IMG/VR virus record: IMGVR_UViG_3300027869_000006
Location: 32,001 to 96,000 of that record
Direction: 5' to 3' (one strand)
Length of the DNA: 64,000 nucleotides
Origin: a virus
Translations under genes and position numbers: made by a program
Shown: piece by piece, positions 25,241-43,305 of the stretch
Layout of the letters: every line of letters begins with the position of its first letter
Position numbering within the stretch: the stretch's first letter is position 1
Notes under the pieces: generated by a model
What the model was told of the DNA's origin: nothing
The model's database searches: none
Seen by the model: the letters and a program-made list of their open reading frames with translations, nothing else

Positions 25241-25382
25241 TAGGCGAGATGATACCCAACCCATCTTGCCCATAAGGAAGGGCTTGCTTACCCCATGCTT
25301 AAAAGACAGGGACTTCCGCAAGCCCGATTGGTGAGAGAGACCTCCCTTGACAACCACGTACAATGGGAAGAAGGAGAGAAGT

Positions 25383-26426
25383 ATGCCTGATTACCCCCTG
25401 GCTGAGGAACACTTTGTACCTCGATCATATATGTTCGATAGCAATGCATGCAAAGTTTTGGTAATTCACAAGACGGGTGGAGACGCAACCCCTGCGGCGA
25501 TCCTTCAAACGTTTCTCACGAACCCGGATCGACCATCGGTCCATTATGGCGTAGGCACAGATGGGAGTATCTGGCAGTACGTCCCTGAAGCACTCGGCGC
25601 GGGCGGGAACTGTTGCGTGGAACCGGGCTATGACCCATTCTGGGCACAATTTAACCCGATGGCTGTTGGGTCATCTTCTGGAACCAACCTGAATACAGTC
25701 ACACTCTCTCTTGAGCATTGCGATGCGGCACTTGACAATAGTACGCCACTTACCCCAACTCAGCAAGATGCGAGCTTCAAACTCATTGCCTACCTGGTCG
25801 CCAAGTATAGCATCCCCCTTTCACACATCAAGGGCCACAATACAATTGACCCACAGAGTCGCGCCCGTTGCCCAGGTAACTACCCCTGGCCCGCGTTATT
25901 TGCCTATCTACAAAATGGAGGGAATATGGCAGGAGTACCAATCGGCTGGCAATACGACCAGGCGACGCAAACATTGACGGACCCCAACGGTGGGAAGGTA
26001 GGTCCACCCTATAGCGCACACGTGTTAGCAAGTAACTGGGACCCGCATAACTTTCTTTGGATCGCCGCCTACCATACCAATCAGCTGGAAGCAGCGAACC
26101 CTGGCCTGGGTGCGGGGACACAAATCATCTTCTATGAGTCCATGCTGTGCGTGCCTGATAATCCCCCAGACCCGAACCTTGCGAACCTGAAGGGAAAAGT
26201 GGTCACGGAATATGTCGGGATTGAAGCGGCCTATGCCCGTAGTCAGTGGACCCGCTATTCGGGAATAGCCCAACAGTTTCAAACACAATTCACAGAGGAG
26301 CAGACAAAAAATACGGCCCTGACTGCCCAAGTCGCACAACTGGAAGCACAGATCGCCGCGCTCTCCCAACCCACGGCGGATGCACAGGCGATTGTGCAGA
26401 TCAAGCAGATTGTGGCGGCGCTATGA
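25383..26426 (+). CDS. Endolysin, N-acetylmuramoyl-L-alanine amidase (Amidase_2) with C-terminal coiled coil
   Basis: VIHKT, SVHY, SLEH, IKGH, CPG zinc-amidase motifs; RBS AAGGAG. Confidence 0.85.
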   Translation: MPDYPLAEEHFVPRSYMFDSNACKVLVIHKTGGDATPAAILQTFLTNPDRPSVHYGVGTDGSIWQYVPEALGAGGNCCVEPGYDPFWAQFNPMAVGSSSGTNLNTVTLSLEHCDAALDNSTPLTPTQQDASFKLIAYLVAKYSIPLSHIKGHNTIDPQSRARCPGNYPWPALFAYLQNGGNMAGVPIGWQYDQATQTLTDPNGGKVGPPYSAHVLASNWDPHNFLWIAAYHTNQLEAANPGLGAGTQIIFYESMLCVPDNPPDPNLANLKGKVVTEYVGIEAAYARSQWTRYSGIAQQFQTQFTEEQTKNTALTAQVAQLEAQIAALSQPTADAQAIVQIKQIVAAL

Positions 26427-27311: not shown

Positions 27312-27896
27312 ATGGCAACGACACCGACAAAAACCCCGAAGCAGCAAGCCTCACTCGCAGGCGTCTGGCAGGGCATTGAGGCACCAATCATCGGTATCCT
27401 CCTCTCCCTTGCCGTAGCTATTCAGCAGTATTTTAGTACCCATAGTGCCCCAAATTGGGGAGAACTGGGAATGATCCTGTTCCCGACCGTCATTGTTGGT
27501 ATTGTGCAAGCACTCAAGCAGTTCAATGCAACACTCGGGCAGGCATCAGTTCCCATCGTCACCGTCCCGCCGCCCGCACCGGTTGTCTCACCATCCGACA
27601 TTGCGGCAGCGATACGACAGCAGGTACCAGGACTGGTCATACAACAGCCACCGGCACCACCGTCGTTCATTGCGCCGTCAGTGCCACCAGGAGGATACGA
27701 TACGACGCTGGTCCAACCCCTCTCATTCGCCCCTCTGACCACGCCTGCCCAGCCACAACAACCGTACACGTGGTCACAGCCAGAACCATCCCCGACACTC
27801 ACGACACCTGCGCCAGTAATTACGCCGGTATTGTCACTGCCAAGTACGTTTCCGCAAACACTCGATTTACCAATCGTACGACCACAAATTGAGTAA
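27312..27896 (+). CDS. Holin-like membrane protein with Pro-rich C-terminal tail
   Basis: Two N-terminal TM segments, long Pro/Thr-rich tail; RBS GGAGG; lysis region. Confidence 0.55.
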   Translation: MATTPTKTPKQQASLAGVWQGIEAPIIGILLSLAVAIQQYFSTHSAPNWGELGMILFPTVIVGIVQALKQFNATLGQASVPIVTVPPPAPVVSPSDIAAAIRQQVPGLVIQQPPAPPSFIAPSVPPGGYDTTLVQPLSFAPLTTPAQPQQPYTWSQPEPSPTLTTPAPVITPVLSLPSTFPQTLDLPIVRPQIE

Positions 27897-27897
27897 T

Positions 27898-27935
27898 AAT
27901 AAAGGGTACTACATCTGCATGTAGTACCCTTTATT
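27898..27935. terminator. Bidirectional terminator-like hairpin
   Basis: Perfect 17-bp inverted repeat AATAAAGGGTACTACAT-CTGC-ATGTAGTACCCTTTATT between convergent units. Confidence 0.8.
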
Positions 27936-27936
27936 C

Positions 27937-28129
27937 ATCCCATACCATACCGCATCCCGCCGGACTGCACCCCACCCAGCCTTGCCAGACATTACCCCGC
28001 ATCGCCACGCCTTACCCCACCGAACTACACCTTACCAACCAGACCATGCCGAACCCGACCGGACCACGCTATACCGTACCTTACCTTACTGAACCCAGCC
28101 AAGCCGGACCTCACCATACCTACCGTGCC
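27937..28129 (-). repeat. (GGY-NN) pentamer array 1, 39 units; putative guide RNA locus
   Basis: Minus strand GGC AC GGT A GGT AT GGT GA GGT CC GGC TT...; 31/39 triplets are exact GGY and the rest are one mismatch away; two 4-nt phase slips; starts 1 nt after a stop codon and ends at the terminator. Confidence 0.9.
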
Positions 28130-28130
28130 A

Positions 28131-28349
28131 TTAAGCGTATCGTGTTTGGTCTGTCTCCCAGTTCACTAAACGTACAGGTGTCACATCTAAGTCTGTGATA
28201 GGAATGCCATACTTTTCTTCAGCTAAACTCAGTCCTTCCTGAGCATCACTAGCGGTTATCTCACCCACTATAGGCACCTGCTGCTTTCTTAGCTTGGCAT
28301 GCACGGTAGTGTCATGTCCCTTATACCAAACATCGAACCTATGCAACAT
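28131..28349 (-). CDS. Small hypothetical protein (72 aa) translationally coupled to the Cas7-like gene
   Basis: TAATG stop/start overlap at 28347-28351; MLHRFDVWYKGHD... Confidence 0.65.
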   Translation of the reverse strand: MLHRFDVWYKGHDTTVHAKLRKQQVPIVGEITASDAQEGLSLAEEKYGIPITDLDVTPVRLVNWETDQTRYA

Positions 28350-28897
28350 TACTTCACCTTTTCCCATGACACAAGAGCAAATCTCCCATACGGCCCTTTC
28401 TTTGCAGGACGGAAGTCACCAATGCCAACAAGTCGCCCTGCATCGGTGAGTATGTCACGGATAAGACGTTCACCAACTAGATCGGTATCAATCTGAACAT
28501 CAAACTCCATATTCCACTCATCGAACATTGGCCTGTGGCGTAGAATACGCCCCCCAGTCGCTTTAATGACAACAGCCCGTGAGTCCACATGCCATTCCCC
28601 TACCAGAGGAATTTCAAATGGGCTAACATAGACCCCTGCCGCTACATCAGTTGTCGCAGCCCTCCGTCCAATTTTGTGTCGTGATGCTGCTGCAATCATT
28701 GACTGCCGAATATTCTCAGCCGGATAGAATGGGCTATGTTCATTGGTATACAGGCGACTTGCCGCATCTTCATGAGGAGCCGGATATTCTTTCCGACCAT
28801 GTGTTCCTGAAGTTGCTTCCTCTGCCGCTGCCTCATGAAAACGATTCACGATGAGCGGCGTCAAACTCGTAATGTTGACCTTGTACGTTACAATCAT
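28349..28897 (-). CDS. Solo RAMP/Cas7-like protein (Vipr-like), 182 aa
   Basis: RAMP hallmarks: first strand YKVNITSLTPL, YPAENIRQSM helix, WNMEFDVQID strand, C-terminal Gly-rich loop AGRLVGIGDFRPAKKGPYGRF; RBS AAAGGA before ATG 28897. Confidence 0.8.
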   Translation of the reverse strand: MIVTYKVNITSLTPLIVNRFHEAAAEEATSGTHGRKEYPAPHEDAASRLYTNEHSPFYPAENIRQSMIAAASRHKIGRRAATTDVAAGVYVSPFEIPLVGEWHVDSRAVVIKATGGRILRHRPMFDEWNMEFDVQIDTDLVGERLIRDILTDAGRLVGIGDFRPAKKGPYGRFALVSWEKVK

Positions 28898-28926
28898 GTG
28901 TGTTATCCTTTCTGTGTGAGTAACTT

Positions 28927-28962
28927 GTGTGGTGCCCTGCCCCAGTGGTAGGGCTACCACGC
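28927..28962. promoter_or_regulatory. GC-rich hairpin between array 2 and the Cas7-like gene
   Basis: GTGTGGT-GCCCTGCC-CCAGT-GGTAGGGC-T-ACCACGC imperfect inverted repeat at the 3' end of array 2 (minus strand). Confidence 0.55.
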
Positions 28963-28977
28963 GAAACAAAATGAACA

Positions 28978-29370
28978 AAACCATACCAGACCGGACCTCG
29001 CCAAACCCGGCCTTGCCAGACCGGGCCTTGCCAGACCGGGCCAAACCCGACTACACTAGACCTCATCATGCCACACCTCCCATACCATACCCATCCTTAC
29101 CGAACTGCGCCAGACCGCAACGTACCAGACCGCGGCAAGCCGGGCCGGACCCAACCTAACCTATTCCTCAGCAAACCATGCTATACCCCACCTGACCGTA
29201 GCACTCCTTCCAAACCGCACCATACCCAACCAAGCAGGACCCCGCGTCACCGCACCTGATCGGGCCATACCCCACCTGACCAAGCCGTGCCTACCTTGCC
29301 GCACCAAACCTCACCTCACTCAGTCTTGCCTCGCTGGACCTAGTCGCACCGAACCTGACCTTGCCGTGCC
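28978..29370 (-). repeat. (GGY-NN) pentamer array 2, 79 units; putative guide RNA locus
   Basis: 58/79 triplets are exact GGY and the rest are one mismatch away; phase slips at 29078-81, 29162-67, 29208-11, 29292-95. Confidence 0.9.
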
Positions 29371-30005
29371 ATAATCCTGCTATAGGCCAATTTCACGCAG
29401 AACTCAACGTCATTCCATACCTGGGAGCCAGTGAAGCGAAGAACGTACCAGCCTTGATCTTCAATCGTATGCTGTCGCATATAGTCTCTATTTCGGTCTC
29501 TCTTGTGACTATGGAACGCTTGCCCATCAAGTTCGATTACTATCTTTGCTTCAACATGGGCAAAGTCTACACGATACTTACTAATCCGATGCTGTCGCTC
29601 AAGAGGGATATCTGGATACAGCAGGCACCATGCTTCATAAAAGGCTTCCTCGATGGGACTTCCATTCTTGACGGATTGCTGAATTTCCCGTAAACGATTA
29701 CGAGCCTCATTAAGTGCAGCCTCACGTTGTTGATTAGCAAGTCGCAAGGCTTCTACTCGCTCTGCTTCTAGTGCTTGACGACGTTCTAGGGCCTGCTCTC
29801 GCTTCTCCCGAATGGTTGCTACTTCAATCTCTCTCTGGACAGATTGCTGATGCTCATTCGCACGACGCTTCAACTCCCTAGCTTCCTGAATCATACTAGC
29901 TTTCTCTGCCGCAAGTTGACGTTGTATGGCAAGTTCATGCTCTCTGTCAGCTTGAAGTTTTCGTTGTTGTTCTTGATAGTCGTTGAATGCTTGCCAGTCC
30001 ATCAT
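29340..30005 (-). CDS. Coiled-coil + DUF559/Vsr-like (PD-D/ExK) endonuclease
   Basis: SPIEEAFY...ERQHRISKYRVDF...IVIELDGQAFH...RNRDY.RQ..IEDQGWYVLRFTGSQV. Confidence 0.85.
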   Translation of the reverse strand: MMDWQAFNDYQEQQRKLQADREHELAIQRQLAAEKASMIQEARELKRRANEHQQSVQREIEVATIREKREQALERRQALEAERVEALRLANQQREAALNEARNRLREIQQSVKNGSPIEEAFYEAWCLLYPDIPLERQHRISKYRVDFAHVEAKIVIELDGQAFHSHKRDRNRDYMRQHTIEDQGWYVLRFTGSQVWNDVEFCVKLAYSRIMARQGQVRCD

Positions 30006-30007
30006 GC

Positions 30008-30181
30008 TTATTGTTCTCGTTTTGTAGGCTTTTGCTGTTTCTGTTGTACTCGTTCTAATTCTTGGTTCGCTAAACGGTCAAGAAGACTCACGATACTCTC
30101 CCCTGTGATGGCATGAAGCATACGCAAGGTGGTAAGTGTCCTTGTCCAGATGCGAGTTGTTTTGTAGTCATCGGTAGCCAT
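30008..30181 (-). CDS. Small RHH-like DNA-binding protein (57 aa, absent from the ORF track)
   Basis: Hand translation MATDDYKTTRIWTRTLTTLRMLHAITGESIVSLLDRLANQELERVQQKQQKPTKREQ; strand-helix-G.S-helix pattern. Confidence 0.6.
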   Translation of the reverse strand: MATDDYKTTRIWTRTLTTLRMLHAITGESIVSLLDRLANQELERVQQKQQKPTKREQ

Positions 30182-30187
30182 GAAGTT

Positions 30188-30216
30188 ATTTTACTACAAA
30201 CAAGTGTTCTTGTCAA
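30188..30216 (-). promoter_or_regulatory. sigma70 promoter of the array/Cas7-like cassette (leaderless)
   Basis: TTGACA-17nt-TAAAAT-6nt-ATG(30181). Confidence 0.75.
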
Positions 30217-30276
30217 GAGGAAAAGAAGACGCCCTTGACACAAGCATATACTAAGAGCAGAAGGGGGAATTTTTCT

Positions 30277-30837
30277 TTGGAACGCGGGTCCGTTATTCTT
30301 TTTGAGAAGGATGGCAGTCTCTTCAATTGGCTCATCACGAAAGCAACTCATGGTCCCTATGTCCATGTGGAAATTTGCCTGGGCGAGGAACGCCTGATCG
30401 GTGCTCACGGTAACCGTCGCGGCATCTATGAGCGTGATTGGGCCGATGCACCTTCGTTAGTGACGGAGGTCTCTCTCTCCCCCTATGCCGATGAAGAGCA
30501 CATCGAGCAGGCCCTTACCTGGGCGCAAGAGCAACAGGGGCATCCCTATGGATGGTGGGATATCGCCAGTCAGTCCATCAAGTTCTTGTGGCCAACGACA
30601 CCGCTCCGGTTCAGCAAGTCAGACGCATGGGGGTGTGCAGACTATGTGACCCGCTATCTGATACAAGCAGGGGTGGCCTTGCCAGAAGACTTCATGGACC
30701 CTGGGAAAAACTCGCCCAACGATATTGGACGGTTGTTCCATCTCGTTCCACAACGGCCACAACGCATCAGAAAACGGGAGAGAGAGTTGAGGAAAGGTCA
30801 TGCCATTGCCGCATTTGCCGCCTCCAGACGAGGATGA
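30277..30837 (+). CDS. Permuted papain-like (YaeF/YiiX, NlpC/P60 superfamily) amidase
   Basis: G.VILF...THGPYVHVEI (His first)...GHPYGW...WGCADYV (Cys later); TTG start 7 nt after AAGGGGGAA. Confidence 0.7.
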   Translation: MERGSVILFEKDGSLFNWLITKATHGPYVHVEICLGEERLIGAHGNRRGIYERDWADAPSLVTEVSLSPYADEEHIEQALTWAQEQQGHPYGWWDIASQSIKFLWPTTPLRFSKSDAWGCADYVTRYLIQAGVALPEDFMDPGKNSPNDIGRLFHLVPQRPQRIRKRERELRKGHAIAAFAASRRG

Positions 30838-31795: not shown

Positions 31796-32233
31796 TTAGA
31801 CTCCTTCCTGAGCAGGTGCTACTTCATCATTCAGTAGTTCAATACCTGCTTGTACGTATGCCTCTATCCAAGCAACTTCACGCCATCTAGGATTGACACC
31901 TTCATCGACAACTTCTAACGTTAACATCCAAGGAAGCATATGGGCATCTAAAATGGCTTGTATCCTAGCATGCTTGCGTTGATTATTATCAGAGAGCAAG
32001 AGGTGTTGCTTAAAACGAAGATAGAGGTTATTCGTCAATCCGATGTAGAAAACTTGATGGTCTCTTGGGTCAATGATCCCATAAATCACAGTGACATTTT
32101 CTTGGTAATATGCCCCTGTATTACCAGTAGATGCTATGCGACTATTGACACGATCCGATTTGTGACCATCATAGAAGGAAAGTTTTTTAATGGGGTGCTT
32201 GCCATCCTGGGCATGAGGTGATAGAGTTGTCAC
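31796..32233 (-). CDS. GIY-YIG-like nuclease domain protein
   Basis: VIYGIIDPRD..VFYIGLT..L..RF.QH...REVAWI...LLN; start uncertain. Confidence 0.7.
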   Translation of the reverse strand: MTTLSPHAQDGKHPIKKLSFYDGHKSDRVNSRIASTGNTGAYYQENVTVIYGIIDPRDHQVFYIGLTNNLYLRFKQHLLLSDNNQRKHARIQAILDAHMLPWMLTLEVVDEGVNPRWREVAWIEAYVQAGIELLNDEVAPAQEGV

Positions 32234-42076: not shown

Positions 42077-43305
42077 TAGCCGCCCCCTTCCGCTTTCGCG
42101 GTATAGTGCGCACGGAGGGCGGCCATGCGCTGCGATCCCTCGGTTGGCCCTATGAGTGGAGGCGCGTGCCTAATGCCCTGCACCTTCGCCTTCTCAATTT
42201 TCTCCAATTGCTCTTTGATGGCCCCGGCAACCTCACAGATATCAATGCTCCGCTGACACCAATACTCATCAATAGTCAACATGCGGGTACGGGCGGCAAT
42301 CACCTCAGCCTGTGTATAGTTTTTCACCATGCGATAGGCACATGTATTCGCCTGGGCAATTTGCCGATCCGTCAGTAACTCCTTGCCCCCGCGCCACATC
42401 TGGAAGAGGTGCAGGCAGGCAGGAACATCCCACTTCACGGGTGATGGGGCAGTAACAGGTACCCCATCCCGCAGGACCGTGTGCTTGATACCCCCTGTCG
42501 GTTGCAAGGAAGCCGCGAGCGACACAGCTACCTGCTTGTCCGTCGGTGGCCCTTCGTCTTCTCGCTCCTCTTCGGTCTCAGGTACAGGGGATGTATCTTC
42601 AAGAGGTGAGAGAGGGAGAACAGGCTCAAGTTGTGAAAATGTTGGAACAACCGGAATCTCTCTCTCTAAGTCTAAAGAAGATTCTGTAATAGATTCTAAT
42701 AAGAGGTTAGAATTTTCAACCTCCCCAGGTTCAAAATCTGAAGGTGGGATGTCCGAATTTTCAACCTCCCCACTTTCTAAATTAGAACCTGGGAGGTTCG
42801 GAATTAGAACCTCCCCCCCACCTTCGGAATTAGAACCTCCCTTGAGGAAGAAGCTAAATGTATCCTTGGGTAACTGGCTCATTGCCTCTTGAATGAGTGG
42901 ACGGTTGAGGGTATAGAGCGGCGCACCAAATTCCTCCCCTGGTTTACTCCGTGTATAAATCAATGTCTTCTTAATGAGGGAGTTGATAGCCAGGCGGAGC
43001 GTCGTCTTCGAGAGAGAAAGGGGATGCTTTGCTCCTACTTTTTTAGAGTCGAATCGGTAGAGTCGGGCCAGGATTTGTGTATAGGAGAGACGTACCCAGT
43101 AGACCTTTGGTTCAGGTGGGGGAGTGCGTTTTTCTTCAACTGCCTTCGCTACGCGGGTTTGCCAGTTCTCTTTCTGCTTGACCATATCATATTCAATGAT
43201 ACGCATAATCTTGGCTTCCAGTTCGTCCTGGCAAATGAGGACGAACTCAAGTCGCTCCATAAGAAAAAGGTTAAAGGGAAATTCAAAGACCGTTGCTTCA
43301 CTCAT
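42076..43305 (-). CDS. Phage replication initiator-like protein
   Basis: N-terminal wHTH-like segment (SKTTLRLAINSLIKKTLI), repeat-encoded middle, coupled to dnaB. Confidence 0.65.
   Translation of the reverse strand: MSEATVFEFPFNLFLMERLEFVLICQDELEAKIMRIIEYDMVKQKENWQTRVAKAVEEKRTPPPEPKVYWVRLSYTQILARLYRFDSKKVGAKHPLSLSKTTLRLAINSLIKKTLIYTRSKPGEEFGAPLYTLNRPLIQEAMSQLPKDTFSFFLKGGSNSEGGGEVLIPNLPGSNLESGEVENSDIPPSDFEPGEVENSNLLLESITESSLDLEREIPVVPTFSQLEPVLPLSPLEDTSPVPETEEEREDEGPPTDKQVAVSLAASLQPTGGIKHTVLRDGVPVTAPSPVKWDVPACLHLFQMWRGGKELLTDRQIAQANTCAYRMVKNYTQAEVIAARTRMLTIDEYWCQRSIDICEVAGAIKEQLEKIEKAKVQGIRHAPPLIGPTEGSQRMAALRAHYTAKAEGGG
42660..42841. repeat. Iteron-like repeats and AT-rich stretch: putative replication origin
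   Basis: GAATTTTCAACCTCCCCA at 42710 and 42755; TTCGGAATTAGAACCTCCC at 42797 and 42823; AATTAGAACCT at 42780. Confidence 0.65.

Follow-up and report, generated by a model that had tools for sequence, protein, structure and literature searches.

A predicted guide RNA of a phage-borne VIPR cassette mirrors the start of the gene beside the cassette

A phage from a soil metagenome carries a VIPR cassette in which one predicted guide RNA, A2, resembles at the protein level the first codons of the gene lying immediately to the right of the cassette. We consider it likely, with a probability of roughly 70%, that A2 is a guide against a rival phage's allele of this right-hand neighbor. The window analyzed here comprises 64,000 nucleotides (positions 32,001 to 96,000) of the IMG/VR virus record IMGVR_UViG_3300027869_000006, whose whole genome measures 109,768 bp; coordinates refer to this window unless they are preceded by the handle of another locus (such as L020).

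VIPR systems, described in 2026, combine a small RAMP-family protein, Vipr, with guide RNAs (vrRNAs) built from 9–16 (up to about 30) YNNGG repeats, in which the NN pairs read the target DNA and one base per unit is skipped, usually the wobble base (bioRxiv 10.64898/2026.04.26.720920, 10.64898/2026.04.26.720927). According to these preprints, the natural targets are rival phages and satellites, a cutoff of 80% is applied that self-hits never pass, and disturbed NN pairing abolishes silencing. An earlier interpretation of the window, made from the letters alone (hereafter the sequence-only reading), had guessed the decoding by two read bases and one skipped base, and this guess coincides with the published targeting rule, including the usual position of the skip on the wobble base.

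Results

A staggered array with a predicted 16-unit guide

The window holds only two arrays with a period of five bases (cNNRc, corresponding to GGYNN on the minus strand), located at 27936-28129 (array A) and 28967-29374 (array B). Both run along the minus strand, which also encodes vipr and the other genes located between or next to the arrays. Within array A, the 16 units of A2 (Table 1) give the plus-sense NN series AG AT GA CG GG AC AT GT TT TT GA CA AA GG TC AT, exactly as written in the sequence-only reading. The block is bordered on either side by a 4-base unit (GGTA at its 5' boundary and GGTT at the boundary to the neighboring guide block A1, both in RNA sense), and each of these units shifts the register by one base. 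Because neighboring guides of published staggered arrays are punctuated in the same way, overlapping by one base (fig. S18 of bioRxiv 10.64898/2026.04.26.720920), the 16 units so bracketed correspond to one natural guide. On these sequence grounds, the block is predicted to be one guide RNA of a phage-borne VIPR system. Its length of 16 full units, with boundaries predicted from the sequence, falls within the published range, and its scaffold is largely intact (full GGY in 14 of 16 units; 15 of 17 according to the array caller, which spans 28036-28120). The guides adjoin one another without spacers, and a scan against Rfam returned no family.

A2 mirrors the start of the right-hand gene at the protein level

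When A2 is read two bases at a time with one base skipped, it aligns without gaps to a resident site that begins 3 bases before the start codon of the right-hand gene and ends with the first two bases of codon 15. The agreement amounts to 20 of 32 bases (62.5%) and 6 of 16 dinucleotides, with codon differences at Leu (TT in A2, ctt in the gene) and Ser (TC and agt, respectively); these counts and codon differences had been given in the sequence-only reading and were reproduced here. Ten of the 16 units contain a mismatch, and the longest perfect run covers 3 units. At the nucleotide level, this similarity does not exceed chance, as both strands of the window together contain three sites with a match of 20/32.

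The picture changes at the protein level, where each NN was taken as codon positions 1 and 2 and scored with BLOSUM62. Here, the resident site scores 58 and the next best of 127,906 six-frame positions scores 39. A score of 58 was not attained anywhere in the 109,768-bp genome by any guide of two null sets of 1000 each, one order-shuffled and one drawn at random from the array's own dinucleotides (null maxima: mean about 37, standard deviation 3–4). Such matches are thus not common, contrary to the permutation result that the sequence-only reading had named as a refutation. In the reverse-complement reading of A2, one isolated outlier window appeared that was absent from neighboring windows, and it was treated as noise.

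The register of the alignment coincides with the translation start: unit 2 of A2 (AT) falls on the TTG start codon, and gene callers and family alignments place the start identically. N-termini of the gene's family share the pattern M-x-R-G-x-[ILV][ILV]-[LF]-[FY]-x3-G-[ST]-x, in line with the type of start that had been anticipated for orthologues, and the decoded A2 peptide agrees with it at every conserved position. Among 158 family representatives, the N-terminus closest to the decoded peptide is the resident one (57), followed by those of P0064 (47) and P0030 (45). Compatibility of these representatives with A2 peaks at 9 of 15 positions, a value attained by a single member at an internal site. 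A2 thus encodes a genuine N-terminus of the family that is nearest to the resident one and identical to none on record. The family itself may be a distant member of the NlpC/P60 or permuted papain-like group, to which its matches are weak.

A neighboring guide mirrors the opposite flank, and the carrier has no self-target

At the protein level, units 6-19 of A1 mirror the last part of the left-hand gene (27312-27896), just as A2 mirrors the start of the right-hand gene. The two guides, read in the same orientation, thereby point to both immediate neighbors of the cassette, as the sequence-only reading had observed. If the cassette were absent, a distance of roughly 150 bp would separate the two targets.

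Across the 109,768-bp genome, 10-unit stretches of the guide blocks match at 16/20 at most. Only two sites attain this value, and both are matches of array B to unrelated places.

Guides of other VIPR loci also resemble genes next to their arrays

We called arrays in 80 related loci and scored each of 1064 guide windows for protein-level similarity to its own locus. Fifteen of these windows have a look-alike there with z >= 5, and 12 of the 15 look-alikes lie within 400 nt of an array edge, compared with 11% of background windows. After merging near-identical contigs, about seven independent loci with look-alikes remain (this phage, L036, L016/19/20, L021/22, L023, L018 and L038).

One of these loci served as a positive control. 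A guide common to L016, L019 and L020 (L020:4721-4990) matches the serine-recombinase gene of L014, L034 and L035 at 23 of 24 NN bases (target sites in Table 1). The orthologue of this recombinase in L020 itself lies 349 bp from the array, shares 69% protein identity and matches the guide at only 22 of 30 bases, with an AGC/TCG Ser switch among the mismatches. Like L016, L019 and L020, the contigs L014, L034 and L035 are VIPR-bearing. Judged from these sequences, the L020/L035 pair directly displays the proposed logic with both partners in hand, the predicted target being located in the rival's orthologue.

In L036, the last guide of a 93-unit array (L036:9494-9958) spells 12 of 12 residues of the N-terminus of the locus's own Vipr (LCNRFSDEAARA; L036:10028-10063), and its mismatches to the own vipr gene consist exclusively of three switches between the codon families of six-fold degenerate amino acids (Leu, Arg and Ser). 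This guide is probably aimed at the vipr genes of other phages. As a negative control, we used the VIPR locus of phage DSL-LC04, whose guides show no image of their own locus; the look-alikes are therefore not a default product of the method.

The codon switches seen in A2 recur across these loci. At conserved Ser, Leu and Arg positions, pooled over A1, A2, L036, L020, L022, L023 and L038, guide and resident gene use different codon families in 13 of 16 cases, against a background of 23.6% in 1147 homologous gene pairs of 50–75% identity from the same loci (binomial p = 1.9e-6). A1 and A2 together contribute 6 of 8. The start-codon unit of A2 is mismatched as well, since the resident gene starts with TTG and the guide reads ATG. 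Under a code blind to the wobble base, six-fold codon families are the only places where silent changes allow escape, and the excess of switches therefore points to selection on the pair of guide and allele and not to drift.

The search for a matching rival allele

Several observations weigh against a live rival target of A2. Considered by itself, A2 shows a codon-family switch at only 2 of 3 positions, which is not significant. The pattern search suggested in the sequence-only reading did not deliver a genuine match: exact scans of viral contigs yielded 0 matches to the 15-unit pattern (units 2-16) and nothing but one chance match to the two 9-unit halves, and an exact scan of metagenome and genome contigs yielded 0 matches to a 10-unit core. 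The single half-pattern match, in L003, was rejected because it lies inside an unrelated AT-rich gene and does not extend. All of these scans demand exact matches, so that a target with a few mismatches would escape them. Sampling of the gene family is sparse, the closest entries to the right-hand gene in protein databases sharing 49% and 43% identity with it. None of the collections contains a close relative of the phage, whose proteins cluster on their own.

The remaining comparisons were similarly negative. The A1 core had 0 matches in an exact scan of viral contigs. Relatives of the right-hand gene in IMG/VR (L001, 41%; L002, 34%) have N-termini that do not fit A2 and flanks that are not syntenic; none were found in metagenome or genome contigs, and nothing similar was found among GenBank phages. 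No guide of this phage matches any of the 80 related loci at >=20/24, and no guide of those loci matches this genome. The contigs in which the source sample is stored showed no variant, joint or empty-site form. Given scans restricted to exact matches and a poorly sampled lineage, the matching rival allele is one that we infer. The proposal of the sequence-only reading that A2 targets the start region of a rival orthologue is therefore borne out as far as the protein-level image of the start and the L020/L035 analogue (23/24) are concerned, and lacks the rival allele itself.

Cassette genes and assignment to VIPR

Table 1 Features of the VIPR cassette, its flanks and the positive-control loci
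Feature	Coordinates	Strand	Remarks
Resident A1 look-alike	27822..27863	+	Near 3' end of left-hand gene (27312-27896); protein-level image
Inverted repeat	27898..27935	.	Perfect 17-bp repeat with 4-nt loop, terminator-like on both strands; interval between left gene stop and array A
Guide block A1	27936..28036	-	About 19-21 units; units 6-19 image end of left-hand gene
4-base unit at A2/A1 boundary	28037..28040	-	GGTT in RNA sense; read from sequence
vrRNA guide A2 (predicted)	28041..28120	-	16 GGYNN units
4-base unit at 5' boundary of A2	28121..28124	-	GGTA in RNA sense; read from sequence
78-aa gene	28131..28367	-	Between vipr and array A; no family match; not kept in related cassettes
vipr gene	28349..28897	-	182 aa, RAMP family; homology to SUSP1 Vipr
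Array B	28967..29374	-	About 80 GGYNN units, several one-base-staggered blocks; period-5 call
Candidate vap gene	29340..30005	-	221 aa; coiled-coil N-terminal half and DUF559 / MTES_1575 Vsr-like nuclease domain; domain matches
57-aa gene	30008..30181	-	First gene of cassette operon; no family match
Sigma-70-like promoter	30188..30216	-	TTGACA-17-TAAAAT, 11/12; head of minus-strand operon; sequence match
Resident A2 look-alike	30274..30320	+	3 bases before start to first two bases of codon 15; 20/32 bases (62.5%)
Right-hand flanking gene	30277..30837	+	186 aa, TTG start; matches phrog_1128; distant NlpC/P60 or permuted papain-like (Peptidase_C92-like) member
Positive-control target sites	L035:7902, L034:11779, L014:8180		Serine-recombinase gene, matched by guide of L016/L019/L020

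The locus combines a Vipr protein, GGY/NN arrays, guides of the published length, no self-target and an accessory gene with a predicted DNA-directed function (Table 1). The 182-aa vipr product matches the solved SUSP1 Vipr protein (PDB 36pp) with an E-value of 6.6e-8 as a single sequence and of 3.7e-15 as a clade profile (positions 39-175). A single-protein search found no close relatives of vipr, and an alignment-based search recovered 80 related vipr loci in IMG/VR. The protein has 120 relatives with up to 75% identity, one of them from a Ktedonobacteraceae assembly. PADLOC gave no match for Vipr, and a single-sequence AlphaFold model of the protein was discarded on account of its low confidence (pLDDT, predicted local distance difference test, 37.5).

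Two side observations concern these relatives. The relative P0183, which is 70% identical, comes by its source name from a Ktedonobacteraceae (Chloroflexota) assembly and may offer a lead to the host lineage of the soil phage. In Gordonia phage Trine, annotated gene 40 contains a GGC-NN run (L005:6615-6694) a short way downstream of gene 41, the Vipr homologue, and the open reading frame (ORF) of gene 40 may in part be a vrRNA array.

The candidate vap gene encodes a predicted nuclease, whose domain also matches a homing-endonuclease model weakly. In L006 and L007, the two closest loci that carry a DUF559 gene, this gene is kept beside array and vipr and the flanking genes differ; the nuclease is thus part of the cassette, which is found in differing genomic surroundings.

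Array B comprises five or six guides, which give no protein-level image in their own genome and have no match in the 80 related loci. At 28986-29042, three of its units (plus-sense NN = AG GG TT) are repeated 3.8 times with a period of 15 bases, and a guide of this kind would specify a target with a 9-base period, for example a Gly-X-Y-like repeat.

To the left of the cassette, a 359-aa ORF together with the membrane/Pro-rich 194-aa left-hand gene (27312-27896) suggests that the cassette resides in a lysis module. The N-terminal stretch of this ORF (25347-26426) resembles an N-acetylmuramoyl-L-alanine amidase (endolysin) motif, an impression gained from one alignment. One DNA run contains the sequence, likely that of the source soil metagenome, and no RNA run is listed.

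Discussion

A model for guides aimed at cassette neighbors

In the model that we propose, a minus-strand operon would start at its promoter (30216-30188) and comprise, in order of transcription, the 57-aa gene, the gene for the DUF559 nuclease, array B, vipr, the 78-aa gene and array A before ending at the hairpin at 27935-27898. By analogy with published systems, the array transcript would be cut into guides at the one-base overlaps, and Vipr protomers would coat each GGY-NN RNA. The 16 NN pairs of A2 would then recognize double-stranded DNA according to the published rule (two bases read, one skipped) and specify the 47-bp site AGx ATG GAx CGx GGx ACx ATx GTx TTx TTx GAx CAx AAx GGx TCx AT, corresponding to a base triplet near the ribosome site, the start codon and 14 codons of a rival allele of the right-hand gene. 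The carrier would be spared, its resident allele matching at 62.5% and hence no better than random genome sites. A rival with a matching allele would be silenced, in keeping with the published activity, or, provided that the DUF559 protein has nuclease activity, cut. A1 would recognize the last codons of the rival's left-hand gene, so that A1 and A2 would bracket the position of the cassette. The data agree with two views of why guides should be aimed at neighbors: phage recombination must not separate the resistant allele from its guide, or the guide pair labels the empty site into which the cassette is copied in a homing-like manner.

Alternative explanations

The second of these views leads to an explanation that is compatible with A2 being a guide against a rival allele and that we regard as a tentative extension of it. 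A1 and A2 would mark the flanks of an empty site, DUF559 would cut there, and repair would copy the cassette together with its mismatched and therefore immune flanks. In a variant without cutting, the linkage of the guide (the "poison") to the resistant flanking allele (the "antidote") would drive the block through recombining phage populations. Both look-alikes do sit at the edges of the cassette, with targets roughly 150 bp apart once the cassette is removed; as estimated from the coordinates, the chance that two sites in a 110-kb genome both fall within 150 bp of the edges is about 7.5e-6. The clustering of look-alikes at array edges in about 7 independent loci, the retention of the nuclease gene between differing flanks in this phage, L006 and L007 (suggestive of a mobile cassette) and the weak match of the nuclease domain to a homing-endonuclease model point in the same direction. 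However, no empty-site relative was found, the source sample contains neither a joint nor a variant, and the published action of VIPR is transcriptional silencing. Moreover, nuclease activity and its coupling to Vipr are predictions from sequence, and the phages of both L020 and L035 carry VIPR, so that the control target is not simply an empty site. It is accordingly possible, and in our view the less probable outcome, that the cassette would act as an RNA-guided selfish drive, with the flank alleles of rivals as targets, the resident alleles recoded at Ser, Leu and Arg codons and at the start codon as antidote, cleavage by DUF559 and subsequent copying or replacement of the locus, and that this is a general habit of VIPR cassettes.

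Alternatively, A2 may be a fossil, once aimed at or derived from an ancestral allele, with guide and gene having drifted since and no live target left. The exact scans of viral, metagenome and genome collections, which found no target, and the identity of only 62.5% to the resident gene are what would be expected in this case. Yet the scaffold of A2 is intact (full GGY in 14 of 16 units), the guide boundaries are clean, and the decoded peptide keeps every conserved position of the family's N-terminus. The excess of codon-family switches argues for ongoing selection instead of drift, and the analogous guide of L020 has a live target, so that we consider a fossil guide unlikely.

Very unlikely is an autoregulatory role, in which A2 would bind its own right-hand gene imperfectly and tune its expression, for instance to time the lysis module. 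The look-alike does cover the start codon and lies close to the promoter region. Nevertheless, a match of 20/32 at the resident site equals that of the best random sites, and binding as loose as this would be unspecific. With 10 of 16 units mismatched and no perfect run longer than 3, the site is also at odds with the published cutoff, with the loss of silencing upon disturbed NN pairing and with the lack of self-targets.

A chance resemblance picked out afterwards, to which one might appeal because the nucleotide-level match is merely tied as best of three in the window, can practically be dismissed, given a score of 58 against null maxima of 37 +/- 4 (reached by 0 of 2000 nulls), a register that coincides with the start codon, a second guide that images the other flank and a DSL-LC04 control free of such matches.

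Relation to known systems

The locus shares with published VIPR systems the RAMP-family Vipr, GGY/NN RNAs flanking vipr, the skipped wobble base, residence in a phage, a staggered array, a nuclease-type accessory gene and the lack of any self-target above the 80% cutoff. It differs in that no natural target was found and that the guides image the two genes flanking the cassette. In addition, the DUF559/Vsr-like partner is found here in a phage, whereas the published work ties nuclease-bearing types mainly to host defense islands. VIPR type II (SUSP1-like) has a conserved structured 3' tail after the repeat tract, whereas the guides described here abut without spacers.

For SUSP1-like solo and vipr-targeting vrRNAs, self-match scores lie below non-self scores, which avoids autoimmunity (bioRxiv 10.64898/2026.10.15.759431). 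As in this phage, these guides are directed against a locus present in the carrier as well, in the version of its relatives, and their targets include early codons and gene ends. However, they target vipr genes, vrRNAs and satellites, whereas the look-alikes here are ordinary phage genes adjoining the cassette, and self-avoidance here takes the form of switches between Ser, Leu and Arg codon families and a TTG start in place of ATG, unlike in SUSP1-like vrRNAs.

More distant parallels exist outside VIPR. Free-standing homing endonucleases of T-even phages (intronless homing, marker exclusion) are selfish cassettes located between genes; they attack the rival allele near their insertion site, and their own site is protected by sequence differences. 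There, recognition is achieved by the nuclease protein, whereas here it would be achieved by RNA guides, and cleavage and conversion are proposals only. Phage-encoded CRISPR-Cas systems, such as that of ICP1 directed against PLE, resemble the VIPR cassette as RNA-guided systems acting against competing mobile elements. Unlike the cassette, they have contiguous spacers, adaptation genes and targets unlinked to the array.

Keyword searches found no mention of homing in the three VIPR preprints and, in the one on competition, none of flanking or neighboring genes either. The targeting of neighbors, with codon-family recoding as the antidote, hence appears to be an undescribed habit of a known system. 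Natural targets of VIPR are known for few clades only. This locus together with about six other independent loci suggests a rule: guides are directed against rivals' versions of genes adjacent to the cassette, and the carrier escapes by silent codon-family switches (here also by a TTG start). If true, this rule would explain how phage populations that recombine distinguish self from non-self, namely through the lasting linkage of guide and resistant allele, and it would provide a sequence signature for target prediction when the rival is unsampled. It would also make RNA-guided homing or drive in phages directly testable. Should the drive version hold, it would amount to RNA-guided intronless homing as a general habit of VIPR cassettes and not a quirk of one phage.

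Apart from the arrays and unrelated to them, the window contains two imperfect tandem repeats, at 42703-42816 (45-base unit, 2.5 copies) and at 322-474 (78-base unit, 2.0 copies).

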